Assembly: GCA_963924565.1 (NCBI GenBank)
Contig: OZ004608.1
Coordinates: 7,068,001 to 7,132,000 of the forward strand
Reading direction: 5' to 3'
DNA: 64,000 nucleotides
Source: Ascidiella aspersa
Taxonomy: Eukaryota
The notes beneath the pieces were generated by a model that did not search any database, had not been told where the DNA came from, and saw nothing but the letters and a program-made list of their open reading frames with translations. Made by a program: the position numbers and the translations under genes. This document shows positions 7,480-48,000 of the stretch, piece by piece; position 1 is the stretch's first letter, and every line of letters begins with the position of its first letter.

Positions 7480-7485
7480 CATATA
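7480..7485 (+). repeat. Target-site duplication, left copy (CATATA)
   Basis: CATATA immediately precedes AGTAGT and is repeated at 24110-24115; 6-bp TSDs are typical of Polintons. Confidence 0.95.
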
Positions 7486-8102
7486 AGTAGTGTTTTCCTT
7501 GCGCGAAGTGTGCCGTGTGCCCAGGTGTGCCCAGGTGTACGGAAGTGTATTCCGGCGTATTCAGGTTACATCCGGTAAGCAAAAGTAAAATTGAAAAGTG
7601 TTCAAAAGTGTGCAAAAGTACCCTGAGGAGCAAAAAAGCGTCTTTGGGTGAAAAAAAACGTTTTTATAAGTTTCCGGAAGTGAAGGTGGAAGTGACAAAA
7701 AAGTGACAAAATGTGTGATACGGTAAGGTAAGGTAGTTCTCTACGTTGCAATGTTTCTGTTAGGCCCAAAAGATTTTTTGTAAAATTTTCAGAAGAGTCA
7801 GAAATCTACTTTTGCGCGAGGTGTGCCAATTTCAAAAAGTGACCTTTGCACGAAGTGTGCCAAAAATATCGTCGATTGGTAAAGTCGAACTGTGCATTGG
7901 TTGTCTTGTTTGTTGTGGCTGATTTGGGCTCGTTCACAGAGCAGAGAGGAAACAGTGTTTCCCTATCAAGACTGGTTTCCTAATTATAGCCAGTATTGGT
8001 TTACTATTGACGTAAAGAGCAATGAGATGGTATTTTATATTTAGTTCATTAAAACTTTAGTTGTTTGGTAATTTAACTTGAAGATGATGGATTTTATTAT
8101 TG
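7486..8102 (+). repeat. Left terminal inverted repeat (~617 bp)
   Basis: Reverse complement of 23493-24109; about 12 differences by manual comparison. Confidence 0.95.
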
Positions 8103-8214
8103 GCACACAAAAAAACTTACATTATCCAATTCATTTTGTTTATTTCTAAATATTTGTGTTTTAAATATACCATTGACTGTATAGTTTTGCTTGACGTTTA
8201 CAGAACGTTAAGTT

Positions 8215-8345
8215 GAGAGGAAACACTGTTTCCCTATCAAGACTGGTATCCTAATTATAGCAAGTATTGGTTTGCTATTGAGTTATAGAGCATGGAATTG
8301 TTATTTTATTTTTTTTTCAGTTAATTAAAACTTACGTCGTTTGGA
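8215..8345 (+). repeat. Subterminal diverged direct copy of the inner TIR segment 7944-8070
   Basis: gagaggaaaca(c/g)tgtttccctatcaagactggt.tcctaattatagc.agtattggttt.ctattga occurs at both 7944 and 8215. Confidence 0.85.
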
Positions 8346-8536
8346 AATATAATGTATTTTGTTGATGACACTGAAAAAAAAAGCAATCATTTTCAATCTA
8401 TATTGTTTATTACCAACTATTTTTATTTCAAATACAGCGACACTATTTACACGAAAAACACAACAAAAAATCATGACTTTAAACTTTCAATTTATTTACA
8501 TTCCTGTTACATTAATGTTGTTATTATATAAAACAG

Positions 8537-9187
8537 TTATTTCTTGATACTCCTTTTTTGGTTTTTGATGGAGTCTTTCATGTCCGTCCACATAGACTGC
8601 AATAACTTTACCAGTTCATTAAATTGTCTTCTTACATTGGAATCAACTAATCCGTCTGCTAGTGGTGCAACTTCGTAGAACTTTATATTGGGTATTAAAT
8701 ACTTTAAGTAATTTTTTGGTGCATAAATATTTTGTACCCGTGATTTTAAAATTAAACCATCTTCTTTAATTTCAGCAGCAGTCGTTTTGATCTTGGATTG
8801 AATAGTACATTCACTATCATCTATACAAGTGGGCCAAAATAGAACTTGAACAGTTGTATATCCATTTTGGCTCTCTTTTTGTTTAGGATACATAATTACA
8901 AAAGGTGACGAAACGTCCATTAATATCTCAACTATCTGTTTGAGTTGTCCGTGATTGAAAAATGCCTTGCCTCGTACTTGAACACTGATCGTAACCATTC
9001 GAATATTCGATTCGTCGTCAAAAAGCGAACGTTTTGAACGTATCTTTCTAAACATTTCACGAATCGGTTTTCGCTTTATCGGCCCAATACAACTTGGCTC
9101 TTGACGTTTTGGCGGAGTTTCAAACAACTGAGAATCCTGTAAAAGTTGAGAGTCCTCATTACATAAATCTAATAAAAGCTGAGCCAT
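8537..9187 (-). CDS. Polinton accessory ORF, 216 aa, unknown function (TPPK and KRSLF motifs; possible degenerate HUH/origin-binding fold)
   Basis: ATG-initiated 216-aa ORF in AT-rich DNA with TATATA ~40 bp upstream (9225-9232); divergent from pPolB. Confidence 0.8.
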   Translation of the reverse strand: MAQLLLDLCNEDSQLLQDSQLFETPPKRQEPSCIGPIKRKPIREMFRKIRSKRSLFDDESNIRMVTISVQVRGKAFFNHGQLKQIVEILMDVSSPFVIMYPKQKESQNGYTTVQVLFWPTCIDDSECTIQSKIKTTAAEIKEDGLILKSRVQNIYAPKNYLKYLIPNIKFYEVAPLADGLVDSNVRRQFNELVKLLQSMWTDMKDSIKNQKRSIKK

Positions 9188-9280
9188 TTTGTTTGACTTG
9201 TGAAATTTTGCTCACAGACACAGATATATATACTGTTTGATGAATGAAAAAAAAACATCTGTTCTTGGTGTGTAAAATGG

Positions 9281-9590
9281 TGTGGGAAAATTTGTTTAGT
9301 ATACATTATTTTCTCATAATTTAAACAAACAATTAAATTTTTGTTTTTATAGATATCTGCATCTGTTTTAGGCATGCCTGGGCAAGCCAAAAAATGCTGT
9401 GGGAAAATTTCTTTAGTATACATTATTTTCTCATAATTTAAACAAACAATTTAAAATTGTTTTTATAGAAATCTGCATCTGTTTTAGGCGTGCCTAGGCA
9501 AGCAAAAAAGCTGTGGGAAGATTTGTTTAGTATATATTATTTTCTCATAATAGAAACAATCAATTTAAAATTGTTTTTATAGAAATCTGA
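9281..9590 (+). repeat. ~116-bp tandem repeat (~2.7 copies) between divergent Polinton genes
   Basis: tgtgggaa.attt.tttagtata.attattttctcataat... units start at 9281, 9398 and 9512. Confidence 0.9.
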
Positions 9591-9949
9591 ACAATTCATT
9601 TTAATAGAAAATTGTCTTTCAAATAGTTCCCAGGGATATTTTTCTTTAGTATTAAATTGATGTGTAACGGCTTAAATATGCCATCTTGCGACAGAGTAAA
9701 ATGACCAACGATTTTTTTTTTTTGCGACTGTCATTATTCAATAGATAACCGTCAGAACGGCGCCACATGTATCCAACTTCCGTTCCCACAGAGATGGTGA
9801 GTGAAAACAGTTGTGGATCTCTATAAATGTATGAGGTTTTTTTTGTATATTGACATATTGAAAGCAAAAACTATTTAGATAAGTTTCGTTACTTTTTAAT
9901 TTAATGGAAACAGGAAAGTGATACCTTTCGTTATTTTAACTTAGCAAGA

Positions 9950-12900
9950 ATGAATTGTGAGCAAGGTACGTTAATAGAGATGTATTTTTATTTTTAAATT
10001 AGTATCCATATTTTGTTTGCTTTATTGATCTGTTATTTGCTAGTAAAATAATGAAATTATAATATTGAATATAATAAAGTAATTTAAATCTCAGATAAAA
10101 AATGAACTTAAACAGTGTGAAGATTACTGCCGAGATCTAGACTTTTTTTTTGAAACAAGATTTAGTTATATTATAATATATGTTATAATAAAGTAATTTA
10201 AATCTCAGATAAAAAATAAACTTAAACAGTGTGAAGATTACTGCCCAGATCTAGACTTTTTTTTTTTGAAACAAGATTTAGTTATATTATAATATATATT
10301 TTAGGCTTACAAGATGATTTGTCACTGCAAAACAACGGTATTTATTTATTTATTTGTATTTGAAATATAATAGAAGTATTTGTTTTTTGTTTGTTTCTGA
10401 ATAGTGTGAAGTTTTCAGAGATTACGTTAGGTGATATGGTGTGAAGGAAAATCACTTACCGAATGCTAAGCTAAATTATATGCGTTGTGATAGGATTCTT
10501 ACATTTATGTATTTGTTTTTTAGCTGACTATCTTGTACATCAATCATGGTTTATTGAGGAAATGAATAAACCCTTTTTGGTGGAAATTTGTGGTTAGTTT
10601 TGTAACCGGTATTTTTTTAGGTGAAAAAAAAAAAACTAAAATTTATTGTCCATCAGAAACTCCAGAAAAGCAATTACCACAGGAAAATGAAATCTTTTAT
10701 GACCCTAAACCATTATCACTTTTGGATTTTACTAAGCAAGATAAAGTTCCTAAAAATATTGATCAAGTTTTGGATTTTGCAGGTGTGTTTATGTACGTAA
10801 TGGCTTAGTGACTAATCTATTATGAGTTTTTCTTGCTTTGTATTTCAGTTAAAATTGGAACCAATAATGCAGAGAAGGAAACTAAACCTGAAACGAAAAA
10901 TGTGGAGAAGGAGAGTATATCTAAACTTGTAACAAAAAATATTAAGAAGGAGACTATACCTAAACAGATGCCTCTCATCATAGATCTCACTAACCAAGTT
11001 AAACTTCCAGACAATATTGATCAAGTTTTGGATTTTGCAGGTGTGTTTATGTACTTAATGGCTTAGTGACTAATCTATTATGAGTTTTTCTTGCTTTGTA
11101 TTTCAGTTAAAATTGGAACCAATAATGCAGAGAAGGAAAGTAAACCTGAACTTAAAACCAAAAATGTAGAAAAGAAAAATATACCTGCAGGTGTTTATAT
11201 TTAGGATAGTTCTATTGATTTTATAGCTTTGCTTTTGAATATTTATAAACATACATATTTAAATGAGATATTTGTGATTTAACTGTTAAAAAGTTGTTTG
11301 CTTGTATGTTTCAGATAAAGTCAAAGACAAAACTCATCTCATTATTGACAAAACAAATCAAAATAAATGTAGACTTTGTAAAAGTTATTTTGAGAGCAAA
11401 GCCATGTTACAGAAACATCATATTTCAAACCACCCAAAGCTTCAGTGTAAACTTTGTAATTACTGGTAAGACAATTTTGTATTCTTATATATTATTAATT
11501 TTTTTTGGGTTTAATTATTCACAACTCAAATTAAAATTGATTTTTTTTTTTCATGATAGCTTTTCATCTGCGTACCGAAAAAGACAGCACAGTGATAAAG
11601 CATGTGAACAACGGAGAAAAAGGTTTTGTTCTAAGGAAACTATGAACATCTCTGATTTATCTCCTCAAAAAGGCCAAGGGTTGAAAGAAAATTTAATCGT
11701 TCAGGATAAAATTGAAAAACCAACAAAACCTAAAAAACTGTAAGCTTATCGTTTTTTATTTTTAGTTATCGAAACATTATTCTATTTAAATGTTTTTTTT
11801 TTTTTTTGTTTTTTTTTTTTATTTGTCTCTGTATTTAGAATTTCTAAACGAAGTGATGACAAAAGAAAACGTAATCAAATTATAGATTCAAATTCATCAG
11901 ATAGCACAATTGATTTTCAAAAACATACAGCAATACCTTTTCACAAGAAAAAGTTAGTTTTTTTGTTTTTTTTTCAGTGTATATATGCATTTTTTATTGT
12001 AAACTCTTACATTATTCTATTTTGATGTCTTTTTATGTGTCTCTGAATTTAGAATTTCCAAATACAATGATGACAACAGAAAAAATATATCAAGCAAAAA
12101 ACGTAATCAAATTTTAGATTCAGACTCATCAGATAGTTCGAGCGATTTTCAAAAACTTTTAAAACCTTTTCATAAAAAAAAGTAAGCAATTTTTTTATGT
12201 AAGTCACACATCATGATTTTTTTTTTACCTAATAATATGTTTTTAGGAATTCGAATCGAATGATTAGCAGTGACAGTTCTGATTTTAACTCTCCTCAGAA
12301 AGGCCAAGGGTTGAAAAAAAAATTAAACGTTCCTGATGAAGTAACTCAAAGACCAAGAAAACTTCAAAAAATGTTAGTATATGTCATTTTTTATTGTTTA
12401 CACTTACACTATTCTATTTTAATGTTTTTTTTTTTATTTGTTTTTGAATTCAGAATTCCTAGACGGAGTCGTGACCAAAGAATAAAATTGTTAAACAGAA
12501 AACGTAAACTGTTGGATACTAGGTAAACCAATATTAATTAATCTTTAATATAATTTTTTTTTTTTTTTTTTATTTTAAAAAATATGTTTTGTTTTAGTGT
12601 TCGAAACAGATTTTCTGAAGATAGTGATATACTTTTCTCAACAATACCAAAGAAGAATCAAACGTAAGTCTAGGTGATAAATGATTTATATTAAATAGTA
12701 CCTTTCAATTAACATAATTCTATTTTGTAGTTCAATTCCAACTGAAGTGGCACACAGTTCAAACTATACACCAATGGATACAAATGACAAAGATGAAACT
12801 TCTACGTCTAAATTTTGTGACTTGCCACCAAAGAGAAAGAGATCGAAAAGGTGATTATCACTATATTATTTATTTCATTAAGAAATGTAATTTTTTGTAA

Positions 12901-15900
12901 GAAAAAATAACTATTCAATTTTTTTTTTTTTTTTTAGAATTACAAATCCTATATGTCCAGAAAACAGATCCGATATTGTTCAACAACATTGGGATAGTAT
13001 TTCTACTTCTACATCACTGAATACCATGATGTCAATTTTCAACTACCAATTACCACTTGAAAAATCTATTGACGATATCACAAAAGATATTTTAGAAGGT
13101 ATGTCTCCATCCAGCTTCAAGATAAATACAAGTTTTGGTTTTGTTATGAGTAACACAATGTCACTTGTGAACCAGTATTTCCATGCATCCCCAAACAATT
13201 TTACTTTCTATTTGATGCCACCTGTTGTTCGTTGTTTTGAAGATCTCAAAAATATATTGCAGTCAGTTCTAAATAGTGATGTTTTAGCTAAACTTTCATT
13301 GCACCGTGAAGATACAAAGTGGTATTTAACAGAACTCACAAATGTTACTTTTTTTACCTATCGTCTAAAGGAGTTTCCCTTAATCGGTTGTTCTGTTATT
13401 TGTTTACCCTCTTTCTTGAAGCGTAGAGGTATCCTTGGTTTTACAAGAAACCACTCTAGGAAACAGATTAATGACAACCTCTGTCTTTTTAGATGTTTGG
13501 CAAAAGGTTTAAAGTGTGATGATGCTAATCTTGAAAAAAAAACATTAGAATACTTCTCTCAGTACTATCCTGAACAAAATGTAGACTCATTTCCAGGTGT
13601 ATCTTTTAATGAAATTTCAAATATTGAACAGTTTTTCAAAGTTCGAATTACTGTGTTCTCAGTCGAAAAAGTTAACGAAGAAATTATTTGGAAAGTAAAA
13701 CGTAGATCTTATGTTCCCAAATCAAATGCAAATTTTATATCTTTTGATGTAGTACAATATGAGAATCACTTTTGTTTTGTTCAATCTATTGAAAGCATCA
13801 CCCATAACTTTGCATGTCAATTTTGCAACAACATGTTTAAAAAACCTTATCTTGTTCTAAAACATGAATCATCATGTGAAATCGGTGTCAAACAAACCTT
13901 TCCTGGAAAAATATTTCGAGTTAACCCTAATATATACCTTGAGCTAGAGCAAAATGGAATTTTAATTGCCAAACAATTGCAATATCATCCATTTTTCATT
14001 ATTTTTGATTTTGAGGCTTTCTTTCCAAAAAATGTCAGCAGTCTTCCAACAAACACAGGAAAAACAACTTTTACACAATGTTACCAACTTTTAAGTGTTG
14101 CAATAACATCAAATGTTCCAGGTTTTGATAAACCTGTGTGTCTAATTTCAAATGGAAACTCTCACCAATTAATTTGCAATATGTTGCATTATTTTTTTGC
14201 AATTCAAAATAAATCTGAAAATTTGATGCTCGACAAATATAGTCATGTACTTGACGAATTAAATTGCAAGATTGATGAAGCCAAATCTAACGAACCTGAT
14301 TTCAAAATGAAAAACCACCCTTTGGTTAAATTAAAAGCAAAATTTTCAGCTTTTATAAAGGCAATACCAGTGTTAACATTTAATGGATCAAGATACGACA
14401 TTCCATTATGTTTAAAATGGCTAATTCCACTATTGCAACAATTTGATCCGATTCTTTTTTGCATTAAGAAACAGAATTCCTATCTTTGCCTTCAAACAGC
14501 CAAATTTCGTTTCTTAGATCTATGTAACTTTATATCACCAGGATATAATCTTCGAAGTTTGCTTCTTGCATTTAACACTGAACAGCAAAAACTATTTTTT
14601 CCTTACGAATATGTTGACAATTTAGATAAATTACAAGACAGGTGTCTTCCACCAAGAGAGGCATTTCGAAGCAGTCTCACAAAAGAAACTATTTCAGAAG
14701 ATGACTACGATGAATGCTGTAAGTTATGGAAAACTCAAGGTATGAAAACTTTTAGGGATTATCTTATTGCTTACAATCTACATGACGTTGAACCACTTAA
14801 ACAGGTTGTTATTAAGTTAATTTCAATCTATCACTCACTGAACATCAATTTTTTGTGTGATGGGGTGTCAACCCCTGGTTTATCACAACGACTTATGTTT
14901 CAATTTGTTCCACCAGATATCTATTTCTCTTTGTTTCCAAACAAGCATGCTCACATTAATAAATTGTTTCGCGACCAAATTGTTGGAGGTCCATCAATTG
15001 TTTTTACACGTTGGCATGCAGCAGGGGAATCTGTTATACGGGGAGATGTCTATGGTGCTACTGCAAAAACATGTCAAAGTGTTATAGGGTATGATGCAAA
15101 TTCCCTTTATTTGTCAGCTTTAATGGGTGATATGCCAACTGGAAATTACATTCTTCTCGAGCGAAAAGAAAATGATAAGTTTAAATTTGAAAGGTCTCAA
15201 ACAACTGGATATCTTGCTTTACAGTGGATGACATTTTATGCAATGCAAAATGATATATCATACATTCAACATCAATTTAATGGTGGAGAAAAGCAAATTG
15301 GTTCTCGTAATATTAAAGTAGATGGGTATATAGCAGATCAAAAAATTGTACTTTCGTTTTTGGGTTGCTTTTTTCATTGCTGTCCTAAATGTAATATCAC
15401 GAAAACCTTTAAGGATCGTGACTTTGAAAAAGTTAGGGAAAAAGACAAAGATATTGCAGCCTATATTCGAAGTTTTGGTTATACTCTTATTGAAATGCGT
15501 GAATGTACTTGGGCTTTTCAATGTAAGACTGATCCACTTGCCATCAGATTTGTGTCACACTATCTATTGACATCACTCCAGCCCCCAAAACCACTCACAC
15601 AAGAAAATATTCTTCGTGGGTTCCAAAATGGAGAGTTGTTTGGTTTTGCTTTGGTGGATATTTTTGTCCCACCTGGTCTAAGAGGTAAATTTAAAGAGTT
15701 CCCCCCAATTTTTAAGAATGCAGCCATTTCACGTGATGATATTGGAGATAACATGAAGCAATATGCAATTGATAATGATCTATTATCCTATCCCACTCGA
15801 TATCTTATAAGCAGTTATAAGGGTGATAAAATCCTCTTAGCTTCCCCTCTTCTTGCATGGTATATGACAAATGGATTGGTGGTCACATTTGTTCACAAAG

Positions 15901-16058
15901 TTATACTCTATGAACCCAAACAATGTTTCAAAACATTTTGTGATAAAGTAACGACTGAGCGACGGAAAGGTGATCTTCATCCAGACTCCCAAATATTAGC
16001 AGATTTATGGAAATTACAGGTAAAACCTCAAAAAAGTATTAGTTGTTTGATATTACTT

Positions 16059-16099
<41 letters not shown>

Positions 16100-16995
16100 T
16101 TAAATAGATTTGTAACTCAATACTATAAGGGAAATTACTACTAATATTAATGAAAATCTTTAATTTGTTTTTTCAGGGTAACTCTGCATACGGAAGGACA
16201 TTGCTTAATAAAGAAAAACAGGAAAATGTTACTTTTTTAAGTGAGGAAAAAACCACCAAAGCTATGAACTCCAAACATTTTCGCAATGCTACACAATTGA
16301 GTGACAACGTGTATGAAGTACACAGTAGAAAACGTTCAATCGTACACAATGTTCCTATACAGATAGGTTCAATGATTTTACAGCTCGCTAAACTTCGTAT
16401 GCTAAGGTTTTACTATGATTGTCTTAACAAATATATTTCGCCGCAAAACTTTGAACTTGTTCAAATGGACACTGATTCATTATATTTTGCACTTTCTGAC
16501 AAAAATTTGGATAATGTAATTATTCCTGAAAAACGTGCAGAATTTTATGGTGAATATGACACATGGTTTCCTTCTATTGCTTGCCCATTGCATTTTAATG
16601 AATTTGTCGCTACCAAAACTGCTAATCTCCCCTTTAATGCTTCTCGTGCATGCTGTCTTACACATTTTAAACATGAAAGTCGGACCCCTGGTTTGTTTAA
16701 AGTAGAGTATTCTGGCAAAGCCATTGTAGCTCTGAACTCAAAAACATACTTTTGCCATGGTGAAAAAACTAAACAAACATCAAAAGGATTGATTAAGAAG
16801 CAAAACAAATATTGCATTGACGATTATTTTAAGGTTCTATCAGAAAAAATAAATGTTTGTGGAGAAAATCGTGGATTTCGTTACGTAAATCAAAAGATAT
16901 ATAGCTATCAACAATTTCGACAAGGCTTGAATTATTTTTATCCTAAACGAAAAATTCATTCTGATGGTATAAACTCAAGCCCATTAGATATTTAA
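9950..16995 (+). CDS. polB: Spliced protein-primed family B DNA polymerase (pPolB) with long N-terminal extension; predicted 16 exons, ~1791 aa
   Basis: Predicted exons: 9950-9965, 10305-10337, 10524-10592, 10657-10782, 10849-11040, 11107-11190, 11315-11465, 11560-11739, 11839-11952, 12053-12181, 12247-12372, 12454-12522, 12598-12663, 12731-12850, 12938-16019, 16177-16995. All introns are GT-AG and phases are consistent. The first three exons are the least certain. Confidence 0.75.
10071..10297 (+). repeat. ~115-bp tandem duplication inside the predicted first pPolB intron
   Basis: ataataaagtaatttaaatctcagataaaaaat...caagatttagttatattataatata occurs at 10071 and 10186. Confidence 0.9.
12938..16019 (+). 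CDS. polB: pPolB main exon (terminal-protein region, vOTU-like protease, zinc finger, 3'-5' exonuclease, palm motif A, Vsr-like insert)
   Basis: ExoI IFDFEA, ExoII FNGSRYD, ExoIII YNLHD, motif A YDANSLY; ends WKLQ at donor CAG|GTAAAA. Confidence 0.95.
16177..16995 (+). CDS. polB: pPolB last exon (rest of motif B, motif C, thumb)
   Basis: Acceptor ttttttcag|GGT gives GNSAYG (completing KLQGNSAYG); motif C MDTDSL; RTPGLFKVE; KTYF and SKG; stop at 16995. Confidence 0.95.
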   Translation, partial: GNSAYGRTLLNKEKQENVTFLSEEKTTKAMNSKHFRNATQLSDNVYEVHSRKRSIVHNVPIQIGSMILQLAKLRMLRFYYDCLNKYISPQNFELVQMDTDSLYFALSDKNLDNVIIPEKRAEFYGEYDTWFPSIACPLHFNEFVATKTANLPFNASRACCLTHFKHESRTPGLFKVEYSGKAIVALNSKTYFCHGEKTKQTSKGLIKKQNKYCIDDYFKVLSEKINVCGENRGFRYVNQKIYSYQQFRQGLNYFYPKRKIHSDGINSSPLDI

Positions 16996-17413
16996 AAAGC
17001 ATATACTTTGTTGTACTTCTGTAGTAATTGTGAATTTTTAATGAAACTGTTTTGTTATGTATTACTAAATCGCTTTATAACCAGAAAAAAGAAAACAGTG
17101 AAAACATGTAATTGTGATGACATTGATGGGAAAAGTCTTATTTTATGTTGTTGTTTTTTTGTTTACTTCTTACATAAAGAATCACAGATTAAAAGAATTT
17201 ATAAAATGAATATGGTTGTTTGTATGTTTTAAGGTTCTTTTCAAGTTATTCAATCTTAGGAAGAGTATATGGAATGTTGATGTTATTTTAAACTAAATTT
17301 ACAATTATGTGAGGCGTTAGCAGCTGACTGAAAGGGAGATTCCCCAAATCATTGAAGTGTAACAAAAAAAATGACCAAATTGTTCATCCATATTATTTTA
17401 ATCTGATTAGTTT

Positions 17414-17884
17414 TTACAGAAACGATTCGGTTACATAGTTATACACAAACTCATCATTGGCTTCCAAATCAGAATTAAAAATATTTACAATGTCTGGCAT
17501 AGCAATACCACGACTACGAACTAAAATAAAAAAACAACTATAGAATCCACAGAATGTTGACGTTAACTCTTGTAAAGTTTTTGTGTTGTAACGAAAAATG
17601 TAGGATGATCGCGAAACAAAACGTGATATATCATTTCCAATTGGATAACAACCGAATGAGTCAAAGTAATCACACTCTCCATTAGAATTGAAATAGACCG
17701 CCACCCAGTGACTTCCATGTTTTTCGGACGAATCCAAATTAATTACATACGATTGAGAAGTTTTGCTTTTTTTAATTGAATAAGTGTTCAGTCTTCGTAG
17801 TTCATCACTTGCAAAAACACCACGAAATGTCTGATTTGCTATTGGATCATTTTGAATAACATTACGAATTTCAATACTATTCAT
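17414..17884 (-). CDS. Adenain-like maturation cysteine protease
   Basis: VINLD..GSHWVAVY (His), YFDSFG (Asp), LQ...FCG (Gln, Cys): the adenovirus/Polinton protease catalytic signature. Confidence 0.93.
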   Translation of the reverse strand: MNSIEIRNVIQNDPIANQTFRGVFASDELRRLNTYSIKKSKTSQSYVINLDSSEKHGSHWVAVYFNSNGECDYFDSFGCYPIGNDISRFVSRSSYIFRYNTKTLQELTSTFCGFYSCFFILVRSRGIAMPDIVNIFNSDLEANDEFVYNYVTESFL

Positions 17885-17886
17885 AT

Positions 17887-19185
17887 TTATGAGTTAAAAT
17901 CAAATGAAACACTCCTTGACCTATCAATTTCTAATAAAGAGTCAAATTCAGTAAACACCACAATATTAACAGAATTTGGAAGAGCAGTTCCAAACTTACA
18001 CTCTAAACGAATAGTTCCGTGTCTTATCAAATCAGTGTGAGAAGAATCACAAGAATTTGGAGTTAAATCAAAGGCATACAATGTACATCCATCAATAAAT
18101 TCTGACTTTGATAAATTGTGTCCACCATTTCGAAAAAAATTTCCTGTTGCTAAAAACAACGCAAAATAAGAACGAGCTGTGTTTTGACGAGAAAAGTTAG
18201 GTTGATAAGCTTTGGAAGGAATTTGTTTTCCGTCTTGGTAGAGAGCGAGAAAATTTAGGTTATAATTTTTAAAATAAAAAGGATTTTTATCCAATTGACC
18301 ATTAAAAGCAGCGTTGTCTACTAAACCAATAATAACTCGTTTAGGGATTTGACCAGAAATAATATTTTTCACTACAGTAAGATCACCACTAGGAATCGAA
18401 AAAACTTTTACATCCACACGAGAAATAGGATATTTAACTGTTCCACGTTCAAGGGCTTTCAAGTGGCCCATTAGAACAGGTGGAGAAGGTCTTATCTTGC
18501 GTGCAAATAAGGCTACACTTTTAAGATTGACTTTGAATTCTCCATTGTTTGCAGACATAAGAGAAAATGTATCTTTACTTCTTGTAAGTCGTACCTTAAC
18601 GTCCACTCCATCGATTAAATAGCGAGGTTGAAAACCCATGTCAAAGTGAATCTTTCCCAGCATCTCAACTATTCGACTGTTACGAGCCAAAAATTTTCTA
18701 TCACGAAAACCTTGATTGGCATTCGTAAGTGTATCATACTGTTCAGCAACGTCCTTTTTCCACAATGCAGACGTAAGGTGAGTCTTTTTCGCATCGCTAC
18801 CAAAGTTAAGTAATGCTTCCAGGTAAGCTCGGTATGGGTAAGTATTGTTTGAAGCAGTTATCATTTTGTTGTTAAACGATACATCAACTTGACTCCATAA
18901 GGAATGAAGCCAATAGTTAACTGGTGCTACAACTGCATCTTCTGCTAACTCTGTCCCGTCGGCATTCACAACACGTGCACAACAGTACAATTGAACACTA
19001 GAGAGATCAAGGTAATCACTAGTTCCAGCTAAATCGAATTCAATCGTTCCACTATCAGTCAACGTTGAAATCGGTAAATACTCGACAGAATATGAGTCTT
19101 CCACGCTAATTTGAGTTGGTTTAACTGCAAACAGATCCAACTCCTCCATTAGACAATGACAGGAGCGATCGTCTTTAAGTGCCAT
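17887..19185 (-). CDS. Major capsid protein (double jelly-roll, Polinton PY/hexon-like)
   Basis: SCHCLMEELDLF...PTQ, YPYRAYLEALLN, NPFYFKNYNL and LYAFDLTP motifs typical of Polinton MCPs; ATG at 19185 with TATA and CCAAT upstream. Confidence 0.92.
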   Translation of the reverse strand: MALKDDRSCHCLMEELDLFAVKPTQISVEDSYSVEYLPISTLTDSGTIEFDLAGTSDYLDLSSVQLYCCARVVNADGTELAEDAVVAPVNYWLHSLWSQVDVSFNNKMITASNNTYPYRAYLEALLNFGSDAKKTHLTSALWKKDVAEQYDTLTNANQGFRDRKFLARNSRIVEMLGKIHFDMGFQPRYLIDGVDVKVRLTRSKDTFSLMSANNGEFKVNLKSVALFARKIRPSPPVLMGHLKALERGTVKYPISRVDVKVFSIPSGDLTVVKNIISGQIPKRVIIGLVDNAAFNGQLDKNPFYFKNYNLNFLALYQDGKQIPSKAYQPNFSRQNTARSYFALFLATGNFFRNGGHNLSKSEFIDGCTLYAFDLTPNSCDSSHTDLIRHGTIRLECKFGTALPNSVNIVVFTEFDSLLEIDRSRSVSFDFNS

Positions 19186-19223
19186 GATTAAGTGAGCCAA
19201 TAATAATATTTGACTTGTGTTGT

Positions 19224-19268
19224 CTTATATATGTCTTCTCAATCAATGCAAAAAATAAAAACACCAAT
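19224..19268 (-). promoter_or_regulatory. Putative MCP promoter (inverted CCAAT + TATATAA)
   Basis: Minus-strand ATTGG at 19264-19268 and TATATAA at ~19224-19231, about 40 bp before the MCP ATG, in the only sizeable intergenic gap of the block. Confidence 0.5.
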
Positions 19269-19338
19269 CAGAAACAAATACGGTAGCTCAACCAGTTAAC
19301 TATCCTCAAAAATAGAACAAACAATTCAGTAATCGACA

Positions 19339-19743
19339 TTACTGGAATATATCAGATTTTTTTGTTTTTTTATTTTTTCGTTTATTCTTTTTTCTTTTCT
19401 TTGCAGCAGGTTCGCCTGGCGGATGTGAACCTTTTCGTTTCTTTTGAGAAAAGAATGAGTTGGTTAACTCTCGTGTTCTTTTTATAGCAGAGTTTCTAGG
19501 ATTTTGTCCTTGCATTACATCGGAAGCAAAATCAATTCCAGATTTTAAAACTTGTTTTCCAACTGATTTTGCACCAGAACGAATTATCGGTAAAATAGAA
19601 CGCCCAATTGTTGAAAAAATAGACCCTAAACCATACCCTCTTTGCAATCCCCCAGAATAAATTGGAAAACCACTCCCTACTTGTGAAAGATAATATTTTT
19701 CATACTCTTTAACATCCTGTTGACAACAGTAGGGTTGCTTCAT
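19339..19743 (-). CDS. Conserved Polinton core-like virion protein with QxGxG motifs and basic tail
   Basis: YYLSQVGSG...QRGYGLGSIFSTIGRSILPII amphipathic segment; KKRKKNKRKNKKTKK tail; lies between penton and MCP. Confidence 0.8.
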   Translation of the reverse strand: MKQPYCCQQDVKEYEKYYLSQVGSGFPIYSGGLQRGYGLGSIFSTIGRSILPIIRSGAKSVGKQVLKSGIDFASDVMQGQNPRNSAIKRTRELTNSFFSQKKRKGSHPPGEPAAKKRKKNKRKNKKTKKSDIFQ

Positions 19744-20531
19744 GCTAAATCGAAGAGACGTTGTCGTTTTCGAAACTTAAGGGTAACGGTAACAAGCCCC
19801 GAAACAAATGGTATGACATTGCCAAACACATCTCTTATAAGTATTTCGATAGAAGAAAATGAGTTTCGTTGAAGACGATGATATATTGGAAAAGGAAAAC
19901 GATGGTAAATCATTTCACCACGTTTCGTAGTAATTGGAATGGTCTCGAATAATGGGACTTCACAATCGCCCACGATACGTGGTTCAATAATATCCGAATA
20001 AACATACAATTCATTAACTCCACGGCGAATATCTGTTGCTACATCCCCACTATATCGCCTTCCTCCATTAAAAGTTGTTTGTTGAAAACCTAACATTGAA
20101 GCAAGTTTAACAGATAAATTTACACGACTACCATCTGGTGAAACCTTTAACTCAGTTTTTCGCGTAAGAGAATTAAACTTAAAACGGAGACGAACCCTTG
20201 AATCAAAGATTTCTGGAGAGTTAGTTAATATTTGTAAGTCTGCGTCTTCAATCAGCTTATTAAGGTATTCCATGAATTCCGTTTCATTTTCGTAGTGTCC
20301 ACCTGGGAGGAATAATTTTTCCTCCTCACCATTTGATATTGAAGTACGAGAGAGAAAAACCTCTTTATCCATAACAGTAAACCAGGAGTGTGGGGCTTGA
20401 AATTCAATCAAACCAACCTCCCATAATCCATTAAGAGTTATTGTTCTTGGGAGTTTCGTTACGTAACTGGTTAACGTATTTTTTGGATAATATTTCAATG
20501 AGCTGTTTGACGGAAGCGTGATATGAAACAT
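19740..20531 (-). CDS. Minor capsid protein (penton, single jelly-roll)
   Basis: FHITLPSNSS...NT...KLP...WEVGL N-terminus; LYVYSDII..RIVGD; SIEILIRD..GNVIPF..G.VTVTLKF C-terminus. Confidence 0.88.
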   Translation of the reverse strand: MFHITLPSNSSLKYYPKNTLTSYVTKLPRTITLNGLWEVGLIEFQAPHSWFTVMDKEVFLSRTSISNGEEEKLFLPGGHYENETEFMEYLNKLIEDADLQILTNSPEIFDSRVRLRFKFNSLTRKTELKVSPDGSRVNLSVKLASMLGFQQTTFNGGRRYSGDVATDIRRGVNELYVYSDIIEPRIVGDCEVPLFETIPITTKRGEMIYHRFPFPIYHRLQRNSFSSIEILIRDVFGNVIPFVSGLVTVTLKFRKRQRLFDLA

Positions 20532-34200: not shown

Positions 34201-34859
34201 GAATATATTGTATCTATGTTCAGAATATTGATCGTTGTAAACAACATTCTGAATTAACTAGTAGAAACCTAAAGCAAGAATTACAACTTATGTCCTTTCT
34301 ACATTACATCTCAAGAAAACAACGTCCATATATCCTCTAAATTACACAACAGACGTGTTAATAAACGTTGGTACGGTATTTAAAAAGCAATACAGATCAT
34401 CTTCATTGGTTAAACAACTTTTTGTTTCTATATTGAGTACGATATAGAAATGCCAGTAACCGTTTTTCTTTGTCTTTGGTCAAACTATTTTCCACGAAAC
34501 GAGAATATATAATGCAGGTTGAAAAAGAGGAAGCAAGATGTCATAACCAAGTAAAGCAACGTTAATTAGTAGTACTAAGCAAATATTGTACCGAAAAACG
34601 CTTCTAAACGTTTAATTTTGGCTTTTGTGAAATTTGTTAGCAATAATTTAGAAAATGCATATCGATCTGGCAAAGTTAAAATAGTCGAATAGTGCTTAAA
34701 AACTGTGCAATGGTTATAGGAAGACGTATTACGAATAGCAAAGCCTAAATAAAAGTAGGTATAGCATTTTGAACGTTTTGAATATATTCTTATTCATTTT
34801 CAAAAAACAACTAATGTAATCAGAGTTATGAGAAACTTTTACTTAGGAAAAAATAATTT

Positions 34860-35133
34860 ATCAAGAATAGAGAGAATTTGCCACAAATTAACACAACTTA
34901 TTTAAACAGCGATACGTCGTTTCTAAACTTGCGAACAGGTCAAAATCGCTATCAAGAATAGCGAAAGTTTACCACGAATTATCCAAGGTCTTTAAACAGC
35001 TATACACTGGTTCCAAATTTGCGAACAGGTAAATATCGCTATAAAGAATAGTAAGAATTTACCACGAATTAACAAGATTTTATTCAAACAGCGGTACACC
35101 GATCCCAAATTTGCGAACATGTAAAAATCGCTT
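34860..35133 (+). repeat. ~90-bp minisatellite, 3 copies
   Basis: aagaatag..a..ttt.ccac.aatta...aaacagc..tac....t...aa.ttgcgaaca.gt.aa.atcgct is repeated. Confidence 0.8.
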
Positions 35134-45000: not shown

Positions 45001-48000
45001 TCATTATGAGTAAGTTCTCCCAGAAAAAGCAGCGTCAGGCCATGTTTTCTTGCCTTGCTGGTGGTAAATGAGCTTATGAAAACAAGTTTCGGAAAATTCT
45101 ATTGGCCCTAAAACAATTTATAGAGAAATAAAGTGTCGTCAAATGATGGATAGAGAAATATGAAAGTACTGTATTATAATATAGTAAGATGGCGGCCATA
45201 ACAAAAAGGTCCTCAAAGTTAAGTAAATATTGTACAGGGTCGAAACAGCTTTGTCAAAAAAACGCCAATAACTTTAATTTTGATATTAAAGAAAACTGAT
45301 CAAAATCTAGATGTCCTGATAAGAGGGTGAAATTTACCTTAAAATTGTACAAATGCTTCGATACAGCTTCGCCCAAAACCACACAAACCGCATATCGTTT
45401 GTTTTCGTATTTAAACACGTGAACAAATTTCCGGACATCCGAATTCGCAACCCCTCATGTCAAGAAAAAGCACAAGGCACGAATTATGGGGGCGCTTGGA
45501 GATTTCCGGATAAAAATCGCCATTGTGTAAGGGGCGACCCATTTCGTTCAAAAGAGAAAAAACTGCCATTCGTTCAAAGAGAAAACGCCTTTACATCTCG
45601 TCGTCTCAAGTCGGTAGCCTCTCTTGTCGCTTCGCGTATTGTACCGGGCTCAGGCCTTTTGTCTGCCGGGCACCTAACGTAAATATTGGATCAGCCTTTA
45701 CTTTCACAGCGCGAAGCCGATCATTATCTTTAGGAAGCCGCGGCGTTATTATCACGTGGTTTGGCGGCGCAATACCCCCAGTGTATGGGTGGGGGCGATT
45801 TTTTTGTAAGATATCTGAGCCGGTCTTAATTATTCAGTGGTAACTGCTTGTTCCGGGTAAAGTGTTTAAAACGATGTTCTGAATAAATCACTTGATTGGG
45901 CGCATACCGCATTCGGTGTTTCCGCGGCGTTTTTTGCGATTGCGATCGGCAACTGTATACCAGTCAATTCTAAATATAGAAGTTAGTCATTCTAAGTATA
46001 GAACATTGGAAATAAACCCCTGTCACCGTAAATAAAAAGCCTCTTTAAACCCTAAAGTCTGTGAAGGACAGCTTTAAAACCCAGCAACCTCAATCGTTTA
46101 CCTTTGAAATATGATCCCATAGATCCGACTGATTACCTAAACCTTTATAGAGTACAACCGAAATAAATATCGTTGGTTTGAACGGCGTTGAATAAGCTCA
46201 ATTCTTGCGCCCACCTCAAAAAGTGTTAGCTCTCAATTTACCCAATTTTCCTGCCATTTTATACAGCTTATATGGGGATTATAGGAATAAGTGTATTTCC
46301 GACAAAAAGCCAAGTTAAGCGGCCTATAGAGCAAAAAGTAACCACCATTATACGTTTATATAGGAATTATAGGCATAAGCGTATTTCCGACGAAAAGCCA
46401 GGTTAAGCGGCCTAGAGCAAAAATGATCAACCATCAAATCAGTCCGATCTTGATTGACGCATTTTTTGCAGTCGGGCCCACATCCGTGTCAGGACTGCGA
46501 TAGTTCAACAAACGTATACGCATGTACGAACGAACGCGTACGTCAACATATTTCCGACCGCCAAGGCAAGGTGCGGTCTCATGAGCCGCTAGATTCACAC
46601 CGTGATTAGGGGTTGAAGTTTGGTGTTAAAACGCGATAGAGAGCGATCTTTTCGAAAGACCTGGGGCCGGGAATTTTGAAGAGGTCCAAAAACCGACCCT
46701 TATAACTCTATTCGTCAAGTTTGTAGCTTGGCTGCTTGATTTTTGTAGTAACTTCGGATTGCTTTGTTCCTCATTTTTTTACATAGTTGCTGTAAAAATC
46801 ACTGGAAAGTTAAAAATATGAGCGATTTATTTGCTTTTCACTTAGGTATCTGGAAAGAGTTGCGTTGTCGTTTTATTCCCAACAAAAAAATATGTGAAAT
46901 TTGGTAAGGTTTTAAGGCTGGATGAACTATAGTGCTTAAATTCGTTTTCCGTTTAAGTAATTAAATTTTGTTTCCCAATCAGGAAAGATTTTCCTTTTTA
47001 TTGGAAGAAATTAATCTTGCAGTCCGCTTTTTTCAAATACAATGCCGCCTTTAACGCCGTATACCACCTTGGCGTATCTCGCTGGCAGCCAAAACAACAC
47101 CGGCCAGCATATAGATAATGTCGGCGTTATCTTCCCAAATCGTCAAATGTGCGAGGTGCGAATTAAATTAGCGGCAGGTCGTGGTCGGCGCTTTAAGCTT
47201 ATAGAGTGGCGCCTCTGTCTGCCGATACAAAGGACATAAGCCAATGGTTTAGCGTCCCCAGCCTTTTTGCCAGCCACGCGATACATTCAAAAGCGTATAG
47301 TGAAGCGGCTTTGTTTGCTGGTATTATGCGCGCCAATAGCTGGGCTAATTCAACTGGTTTCTTATGTCTGTGGGTGGCGATTTAAAGTCAACACGGTTGA
47401 ACCGGATCTGACTGCTAAACTTTTGTGCGGCAATGTTCACTTTCTGGTTTTGGCTTTGCTTTTTCGGCATAGGATATAGTGTTGTTGCTGTATTTTTACC
47501 GTTCATGTATATACTTTTTTTCAAATTAAATTTCTACATTATAAATTTGCTTGCGTTTATTTGCAATTGTCAAAATAGGTGGTCGAAATTTATGCTAGAG
47601 GTGAAAAAAAAACACATTCCATAGCTAACTTTTTGAATTTTTAAATATAATATAAAAAGTTTACCTTTTAGTATTTTTGACCCTGTTGAAAATTTAAAAC
47701 GTTTAACTTGATTGCTTTCGCGAATTTGCCTTGGTGACGAAAGCGCATCACCTTTAACAGTAGTATTTTCGTCAAAAATCAATCATTGAGTGGCCTCGAA
47801 AAGCAAAGCCGATTTCTGCAAACCGCTGAATTAACATTCCGGGTTATTTTCGAGCCCCCACCTATGCACCCCTCCCCCCATCAAGGTACCCCTGGGCTGC
47901 CAAGGCTTATCTCGATTGGATTATCAGTCAGCTGGTGCCTGGCATGGTGGCGAGTCAGACAGGCGTAAGCTTCTAAGCGTGGCCAATCTATCAGCAACGC

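Follow-up and report, generated by a model that had tools for sequence, protein, structure and literature searches.

The window, that is, the whole 64,000-nucleotide stretch of Ascidiella aspersa DNA analysed here, contains an intact Polinton/Maverick element of 16,624 bp (7486 to 24109, no strand assigned), recognised by its terminal inverted repeats (TIRs), a target duplication and matches to integrase, ATPase and protease. The TIRs measure ~616 bp and are 97.9% identical over 623 columns, and the 6-bp target duplication CATATA is present on both sides (7480 to 7485 and 24110 to 24115). Pfam searches returned an integrase with an rve domain (PF00665, E = 1.9e-13) and a chromodomain (E = 2.1e-10), a packaging ATPase (Adeno_IVa2, E = 2.2e-6, above the cut-off) and a maturation protease (Peptidase_C5, E = 5.8e-4, just under the cut-off); two further intact ORFs, of 432 and 263 amino acids (aa), gave no Pfam match and are named by size and position only. 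Internal stops were absent from all seven other ORFs checked in the element. A duplication of ~270 bp (74.6%) lies at the inner end of the left TIR (7944 to 8434), and direct or tandem repeats are found on the host side at 24537 to 25916, 27828 to 28220, 34859 to 35132 and 46259 to 46434 (84.6% over 683 bp, 75% over 192 bp, and periods of 90 and 88 bp).

Exon E16 (12938 to 16019, + strand) is by its motifs and homologues the conserved body of the protein-primed family B polymerase (pPolB) of this element. It has 27 homologues (best E = 4e-197, the best one carrying PF03175), the nearest named one being from Clavelina at 31%, and no direct polymerase match in Pfam or PDB searches. OTU-like, Exo I to III and Pol A motifs were recognised in E16, while Pol B and Pol C fall in the last exon (16177 to 16995, +), beyond the last intron; each of the Exo I to III and Pol A to C patterns that mark a pPolB occurs once in the gene. 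The boundaries of the terminal-protein and OTU parts were drawn from motifs. The donor of the last intron (16020) was inferred from the length of a 5,032-nt contig described below, and its acceptor is used in RNA. Positions 830 to 893 of the family profile A1 (12939 to 16019) match Vsr endonuclease structures (E = 9e-5); pPolB2 of molluscs and of one marine nematode is reported, in the parts of the source available, to have such a domain, VSR (10.1101/2023.08.22.554363).

Upstream of this body, 15 introns with GT..AG ends were predicted, 7 in phase 1 followed by 8 in phase 2, and the resulting 5' model contains no stop in 495 codons. Reads from 4 of the 14 listed runs were aligned, leaving out X1, X2 and the metagenome rows with a small share. 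These are a stranded RNA run chosen by its species label (X10; 363 reads placed, with about 6/100 of the run read), a DNA run (X9), a DNA-type run (X4) and a run whose type is not on record (X3) and whose contigs skip GT..AG introns. RNA backs 12 of the 15 predicted 5' introns, so that this pPolB carries at least 12 spliceosomal introns in its 5' part and at least 13 including the last. X10 reads cross the joints of I4 (12 reads), I5 (8), I6 (19), I7 (31), I8 (22), I10 (16), I11 (33) and I14 (27), and loose read ends match the next exon at I12 (5 reads) and I15 (8 reads). I9 and I13 are covered by the 5,032-nt X3 contig, I9 by adjacent pieces and I13 by coordinates only; the listed coordinates of this contig agree with the model from E8 to E16 (window position 12948 corresponding to 1047 of the record), and its length is that expected of a message whose 3' end lies 95 nt past the stop. 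One contig is spliced in frame from E7 into the polymerase exon.

All parts of the model lie on the + strand. The leader exons E1 (9950 to 9965), E2 (10305 to 10337) and E3 (10419 to 10430), with the phase-1, GT..AG introns I1 to I3 (leader region 9950 to 10523), are an in-frame prediction; no joint for these introns was found among the matches listed, X10 depth there being ~0 to 1, and X3 holds an unspliced piece (10308 to 10552). E4 (10524 to 10592), in which an in-frame methionine at 10562 may be the start codon, is followed by I4 (10593 to 10656), whose 64 nt with GT..AG ends are skipped both by the X10 reads and by an X3 contig. Next come E5 (10657 to 10782; 126 nt, phase 1-1), E6 (10849 to 11040; 192 nt, phase 1-1) and E7 (11107 to 11190, phase 1-1), separated by two 66-nt phase-1 introns, I5 (10783 to 10848; reads with up to 70 letters on the short side) and I6 (11041 to 11106; up to 72 letters), and followed by I7 (11191 to 11314), which an X3 contig also supports. 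The phase switches from 1 to 2 in E8 (11315 to 11465), which carries a C2H2-pattern finger; after I8 (11466 to 11559), E9 (11560 to 11739) completes a second finger, of the C2HC type as judged from its sequence, and holds the peptide SPQKGQGLK. Exons E10 to E15 (within 11740 to 12937) are divided by phase-2 introns supported by X10 and X3: I9 (11740 to 11838), I10 (11953 to 12052), I11 (12182 to 12246), I12 (12373 to 12453), I13 (12523 to 12597), I14 (12664 to 12730) and I15 (12851 to 12937).

The extension encoded by these exons is rich in lysine (15.6%) and serine (9.5%), and the E8 finger matches Pfam zf-C2H2_4 at E = 0.007, below the cut-off. Since 10 of the 27 homologues also have an N-terminal extension with a C2H2 pattern before the conserved body, we regard the extension as a family trait and the intron load as the unusual part. 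Lengths divisible by three are found for 9 of the 16 introns of the model. Among the matches listed, 9 of 11 indels in the DNA runs fall in introns, 2 of 11 in or at predicted intron 1 or 4, and none in confirmed exons. Two unrelated tandem arrays with 114-bp units lie at 9274 to 9589 (2.7 copies) and 10056 to 10297 (2.1 copies), the latter within predicted intron 1, where three DNA reads skip 132 bp of it.

The sequence-only reading of this stretch had drawn attention to a near-identical pair of segments, 10755 to 10892 and 11013 to 11150, each containing a 66-bp intron, and had described them as intron gain caught in the act. The pair itself is as described: the segments differ at 2 of 138 positions and the GT..AG introns I5 and I6 at 1 of 66, and both copies are spliced in RNA, as the reads over the two joints show. 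The 258-bp period of the duplication is likewise real, although only 138 of the 258 bp are near-identical, so that these are not two fresh 258-bp units. Homology extends further, over approximately 10702 to 10924 versus 10960 to 11190, with coding flanks that are 73 to 75% identical; identity rises to 98.6% at 10755 and drops again at 10893. Mismatches number 2 in 138 in the core against 21 in 81 aligned columns in the flanks (Fisher P = 2e-8), and the contrast persists for the intron alone (1 in 66 versus 21 in 81; P = 1e-5). The recency implied by "caught in the act" was therefore overstated. A near-identical core sits inside an older duplication and was probably homogenised later, because a neutral intron cannot otherwise stay 98% identical while its coding flanks lose a quarter of their identity; such a step in identity is what one would expect to see at the borders of tandem arrays whose members exchange sequence.

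Nor was an intron gained in the sense of one newly created: what was copied is an intron already present, together with the exon halves adjoining it. The copied block takes in the intron with one half each of E5 and E7, the 3' part of E5 forming the left edge of the duplicated block, and E6 is thus a new, chimeric exon with an E7-like start, a 39-nt (13-codon) sub-repeat (10882 to 10959, units 79% alike) and an E5-like end. Five DNA reads fit a form of E6 without one 39-nt unit. A whole intron was therefore duplicated together with exon sequence on both sides, and both copies are spliced, a situation that Ma et al. 2016 (PMC4974935), in the part of that article available, keep apart from intron creation as multiplication of a pre-existing intron, with TOUCH3 of Arabidopsis as the case (Knowles & McLysaght 2006; Gao & Lynch 2009, as cited in PMC4974935). 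Under the alternative model of Rogers, a new intron arises from tandem duplication of an exonic AG/GT site and, by the criterion given in the same source (PMC4974935, in part), derives from duplicated exon sequence and leaves the peptide unchanged. The exon ends preceding I5, I6 and I7 do look like acceptor sites followed by GT, but I5 and I6 are like each other and unlike the exons next to them, the protein gained a 64-codon exon from the duplication, which was not spliced away, and skipping of one unit from E5 to E7 is seen in 4 reads whose short side, 34 letters at most, falls within the ambiguous range. We consider this model very improbable for the locus as a whole, and for I5 and I6 the present data refute it. 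An assembly artefact, to which the two cores with their two differences might lend some colour, has a probability close to nil: an independent RNA run joins E5 to E6 (70 letters) and E6 to E7 (72 letters) past the shared stretch, E6 has 120 bp found nowhere else, and DNA reads cover both introns, only 1 of 685 fitting two places.

Signs of older duplication are also present further downstream. The SPQKGQGLK exons E9 and E12 (11560 to 11739 and 12247 to 12372; z = 25.7, a score reached by none of 200 shuffles) are related, as are the ISK exons E10 and E11 (11839 to 11952 and 12053 to 12181; z = 23.8), both pairs having been proposed as paralogous earlier (as exons 8 to 11, which are E9 to E12 here). 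The same proposal linked the introns ending at 11838, 12052 and 12453. This holds for the pairs 11838/12453 (z = 6.2) and 12052/12453 (z = 10.5); the pair 11838/12052 is weak by itself (z = 2.7, 5 of 200 shuffles) but has an acceptor window identical at 30 of 36 positions. When 36-nt junction windows were compared across 34 same-phase intron pairs, with 32 cross-phase pairs as a control (maximum, 18 of 36), I5/I6 (36 of 36), I9/I10 (30), I9/I12 (26 and 24), I10/I11 (25) and I10/I12 (23) exceeded the control, and the other 8 of the 13 pairs above it did so by only 1 to 4 letters. The suggestion that duplication lies behind the runs of identical phase is thus clear for I5/I6 and for I9, I10, I11 and I12, whereas paralogy of I4, I7, I8, I13, I14 and I15 is weak or undetectable; duplication would explain about six introns clearly and more of them plausibly. 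Between the paralogous exons, gaps keep the frame and amino-acid-changing codons mostly outnumber synonymous ones, a pattern that resembles divergence in a loosely constrained linker.

On this evidence, we think it probable that the 5' end of pPolB, which encodes a lysine/serine-rich, zinc-finger-bearing extension of ~460 to 495 aa, grew by duplication of blocks, that the E5-to-E7 block is still turning over and that an alternative donor drops the polymerase from part of the messages. Growth would have occurred by internal tandem duplication of blocks made of half an exon, a whole intron and half an exon; since neighbouring introns share their phase, every additional block brings with it one more intron and one more exon, in frame. 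E5-I5-E6-I6-E7 would then be an older duplication with ongoing turnover, in which unequal exchange or conversion within the 138-bp core may keep the twins identical while the outer flanks drift. In this scheme, change would have run towards gain rather than loss. An unlikely, though not far-fetched, alternative is that a host (cargo) gene was captured and spliced onto pPolB as its intron-rich 5' part, most introns and their phase runs arriving with it and duplication adding few. In nematode Mavericks, cargo genes with introns sit beside core genes without them (10.1101/2022.07.12.499685, in the part available), about half of the introns here have no detectable paralogue, and the short isoform described below uses the 5' exons with nearly no pPolB sequence. 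Against capture, N-terminal zinc fingers are usual in the pPolB family (the 10 of 27 homologues above), the contig spliced from E7 into the polymerase exon stays in frame and much of the 5' region is self-similar. For the oldest introns, cargo capture can be compatible with block duplication.

In the same scheme, some element copies would have more than one E6. X10 contains 25 reads, with 15 different starts, in which the end of E6 runs directly into its own start; the best of them has a short side of 66 letters. The letters shared exactly are 28 before the donor (E5/E6) and 33 after the acceptor (E6/E7), and a linear message with two introns could have misplaced at most 7 to 10 of these reads, none with more than ~36 letters. 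RNA depth in X10 is 12 over E5, 35 to 53 over E6 and 30 to 35 over E8. DNA depth in X9 is 48 to 53 at four E6-unique places against a mean of 33 (25 to 42) at 18 flanking places, a ratio of 1.52, to be read with the four places not being independent and with bin depth in that run ranging from 8.5 to 53 for other reasons; among 30 bins, the two of E6 rank highest. In X4, depth is 11.7 for the contig over E6, versus 2.1 to 7 for seven other pieces among the matches listed, and X3 shows no excess over E6 (116 vs 110). Three further candidates were dropped as evidence for extra modules or skipping: an E6 back-joint in X3 (36 letters) and the E5-to-E7 skip (4 reads), both within the ambiguous 28 + 33-nt overlap, and an X9 joint from 11139 to 10921 (5 reads), which would look the same if E6 had lost 39 nt in frame.

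Circular RNAs are usually scarce in mature-mRNA libraries. A genome with the two-intron form only could nevertheless produce E6-to-E6 reads as a 192-nt circular RNA or by template switching during reverse transcription, in which case the duplication would be a static, converted repeat without any accordion. E6 is indeed flanked by identical introns, X3 has no excess depth and the DNA depth is noisy; we nonetheless judge this reading to be distinctly improbable, given that the E6-to-E6 junction is about as common as the linear E6-to-E7 junction (25 vs 19 reads), that X10 has an intron depth of 0 to 2, like a mature-mRNA library (its library selection not being on record), and that two DNA-type runs have raised E6 depth. 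Extra genomic copies of the module probably account for the reads, with more than one E6 in some element copies. The accordion-style amplification proposed from the sequence thus retains its symmetric in-frame exons, its spliced twins and its setting in the polymerase of an intact Polinton, and for a varying module number there are signs. A search for a single-module relative that would fix the direction as gain or loss found none: viral contigs with the pPolB exon gave 41 candidate stretches and no relative, and metagenome contigs with the capsid ORF gave one 5.6-kb locus without a long ORF of polymerase size.

Several other observations concern variation among copies. A diverged subfamily accounting for ~15% of DNA reads has different versions of the twin introns (10632 to 11155), with unphased joints in X9 from 10632 to 10753 (5 reads) and from 10839 to 11155 (3 reads); it is possibly a form with fewer modules. 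X9 depth is 8.5 to 19 across 11665 to 12632 and 23 to 39 on either side, which may reflect masking of T runs or copies whose phase-2 modules are missing or different. Eight reads join 10864 to 13029. The Clavelina records P0029, P0031 and P0034 have a 44-residue N-terminal repeat once or twice depending on the record, and the RefSeq isoforms of Clavelina differ by in-frame segments inside the polymerase.

A second feature of the transcripts is an alternative junction within E16. In one RNA run, X10, thirteen reads break off from the reference at 13099, with loose ends that match the beginning of the last exon. The segment removed (13099 to 16176, +; 3,078 nt) begins with GTATGT and ends at the normal acceptor of the last intron; with its GT and AG ends, it is therefore best read as an alternative intron rather than as a deletion. 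Because the donor is in phase 1 and the acceptor in phase 0, the frame shifts and a stop is reached one codon into the last exon, a position from which a stop codon should escape nonsense-mediated decay. Counted from Met 10562, the short isoform would have ~517 aa, compared with ~1,762 aa for the full form, and would keep the zinc-finger part. Read depth in X10 drops from 23 to 10 between 13092 and 13103 and is down to 0.24 in the last bin. None of its reads extends beyond 13450, whereas 46 DNA reads overrun the ends of the stretch; X10 thus contains hardly any full-length message, which X3 does hold. The residual X10 depth of ~10 from 13103 fades to ~0 before 13450 with no joint among the matches listed. 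Between 13099 and 13800, AATAAA and ATTAAA are absent and there is only an A9 run, at 13534. A 7-nt deletion at 12809 occurs in 4 of 25 RNA reads and 0 of 25 DNA reads, so that at least one frameshifted, broken copy is transcribed.

To our knowledge, how Polinton/Maverick elements restrict their own activity is an open question, and the literature consulted contained no account of control by splicing. Splicing out the polymerase could be a way to switch replication of the element off. We put forward, as a tentative idea that we think rather more likely to be wrong than right, that this Polinton might control its own replication through a regulated choice between the donors at 13099 and 16020, the short zinc-finger protein being a putative repressor or competitor. 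Such a polymerase-less protein would act at the element ends in the manner of the P element, and the exon-intron accordion would be its fast-evolving part. Origin of the short message from decayed copies, and silencing from the host side, would be alternative explanations. The isoform is a candidate switch between soma and germline or between latent and active states. The IVS3 switch of the Drosophila P element, between an 87-kDa transposase and a 66-kDa repressor (PMC7776569, in the part available), is similar in that one splice form keeps the N-terminal metal-binding, putative DNA-binding part without the catalytic part; it differs in that the P element retains an intron, whereas here a 3-kb alternative intron is removed (one RNA run).

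That the amplified exons belong to a viral gene, as the sequence-only reading had it, is borne out by the TIRs, the integrase and the homologues, which place them in the polymerase of an intact Polinton. Like the Polintons and adintoviruses described in the available portions of PMC8502044, PMC8097293 and PMC12721341, the element has TIRs, a 6-bp target duplication, an rve-chromo integrase, an ATPase and a protease, and its pPolB has the OTU-like and Exo/Pol motifs; known Polinton/Maverick pPolBs carry N-terminal terminal-protein and OTU domains (same sources). As far as the accessible parts of these studies go, Barreat & Katzourakis (PMC8097293) report intronless ORFs in 134 intact vertebrate elements, and Widen et al. 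(10.1101/2022.07.12.499685) report intronless core genes and intron-bearing cargo genes in nematode Mavericks. The pPolB described here differs from both in having at least 13 introns and an alternative splice; the absence of introns from core genes, a trait reported for vertebrate elements and one nematode element but not a defining one, does not extend to it, 12 of its 15 predicted 5' introns being RNA-supported. No spliced pPolB is described in the available parts of Jeong et al. (10.1101/2023.08.22.554363) or Starrett et al. (PMC8502044), no case appears in those of PMC12220804, PMC11296320, PMC12721341, PMC5718144 or 10.64898/2026.07.28.741278, and no report of a spliced Polinton pPolB was found in the literature searched, Repbase reports, most subscription papers and supplements, which may contain intron-bearing gene models, falling outside that search. 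Spliced models do exist in databases, as the RefSeq isoforms for the Clavelina pPolB-like gene indicate. The RNA evidence here indicates that a core Polinton pPolB can hold at least 13 spliceosomal introns, and since the leader is split by introns, ORF-based surveys would miss its first 460 to 495 residues.

Related spliceosomal introns within Polinton-like elements are also known from dinoflagellates, where they are introners, that is, transposon-made introns (10.1101/2025.03.18.643946, in the part available). Those were inserted at unrelated sites, whereas here the related introns lie in related exon flanks, as block duplication predicts, and on that ground, from a comparison within this gene, we rejected an introner identity for them. 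The closest likeness is to multiplication of the TOUCH3 type: a whole intron and exon sequence on both sides are copied, and intron number rises with none created. In contrast to TOUCH3, the gene concerned here is one of the core genes of a mobile, virus-like element and serves its replication, the process has recurred at two phases, and copy number seems to vary from one element copy to another. The locus offers a multi-copy system in which intron number, apparently different from copy to copy, lends itself to direct scoring. The duplication mechanism is textbook; what sets this case apart is where it occurs, the apparent variation in copy number and the alternative splice.
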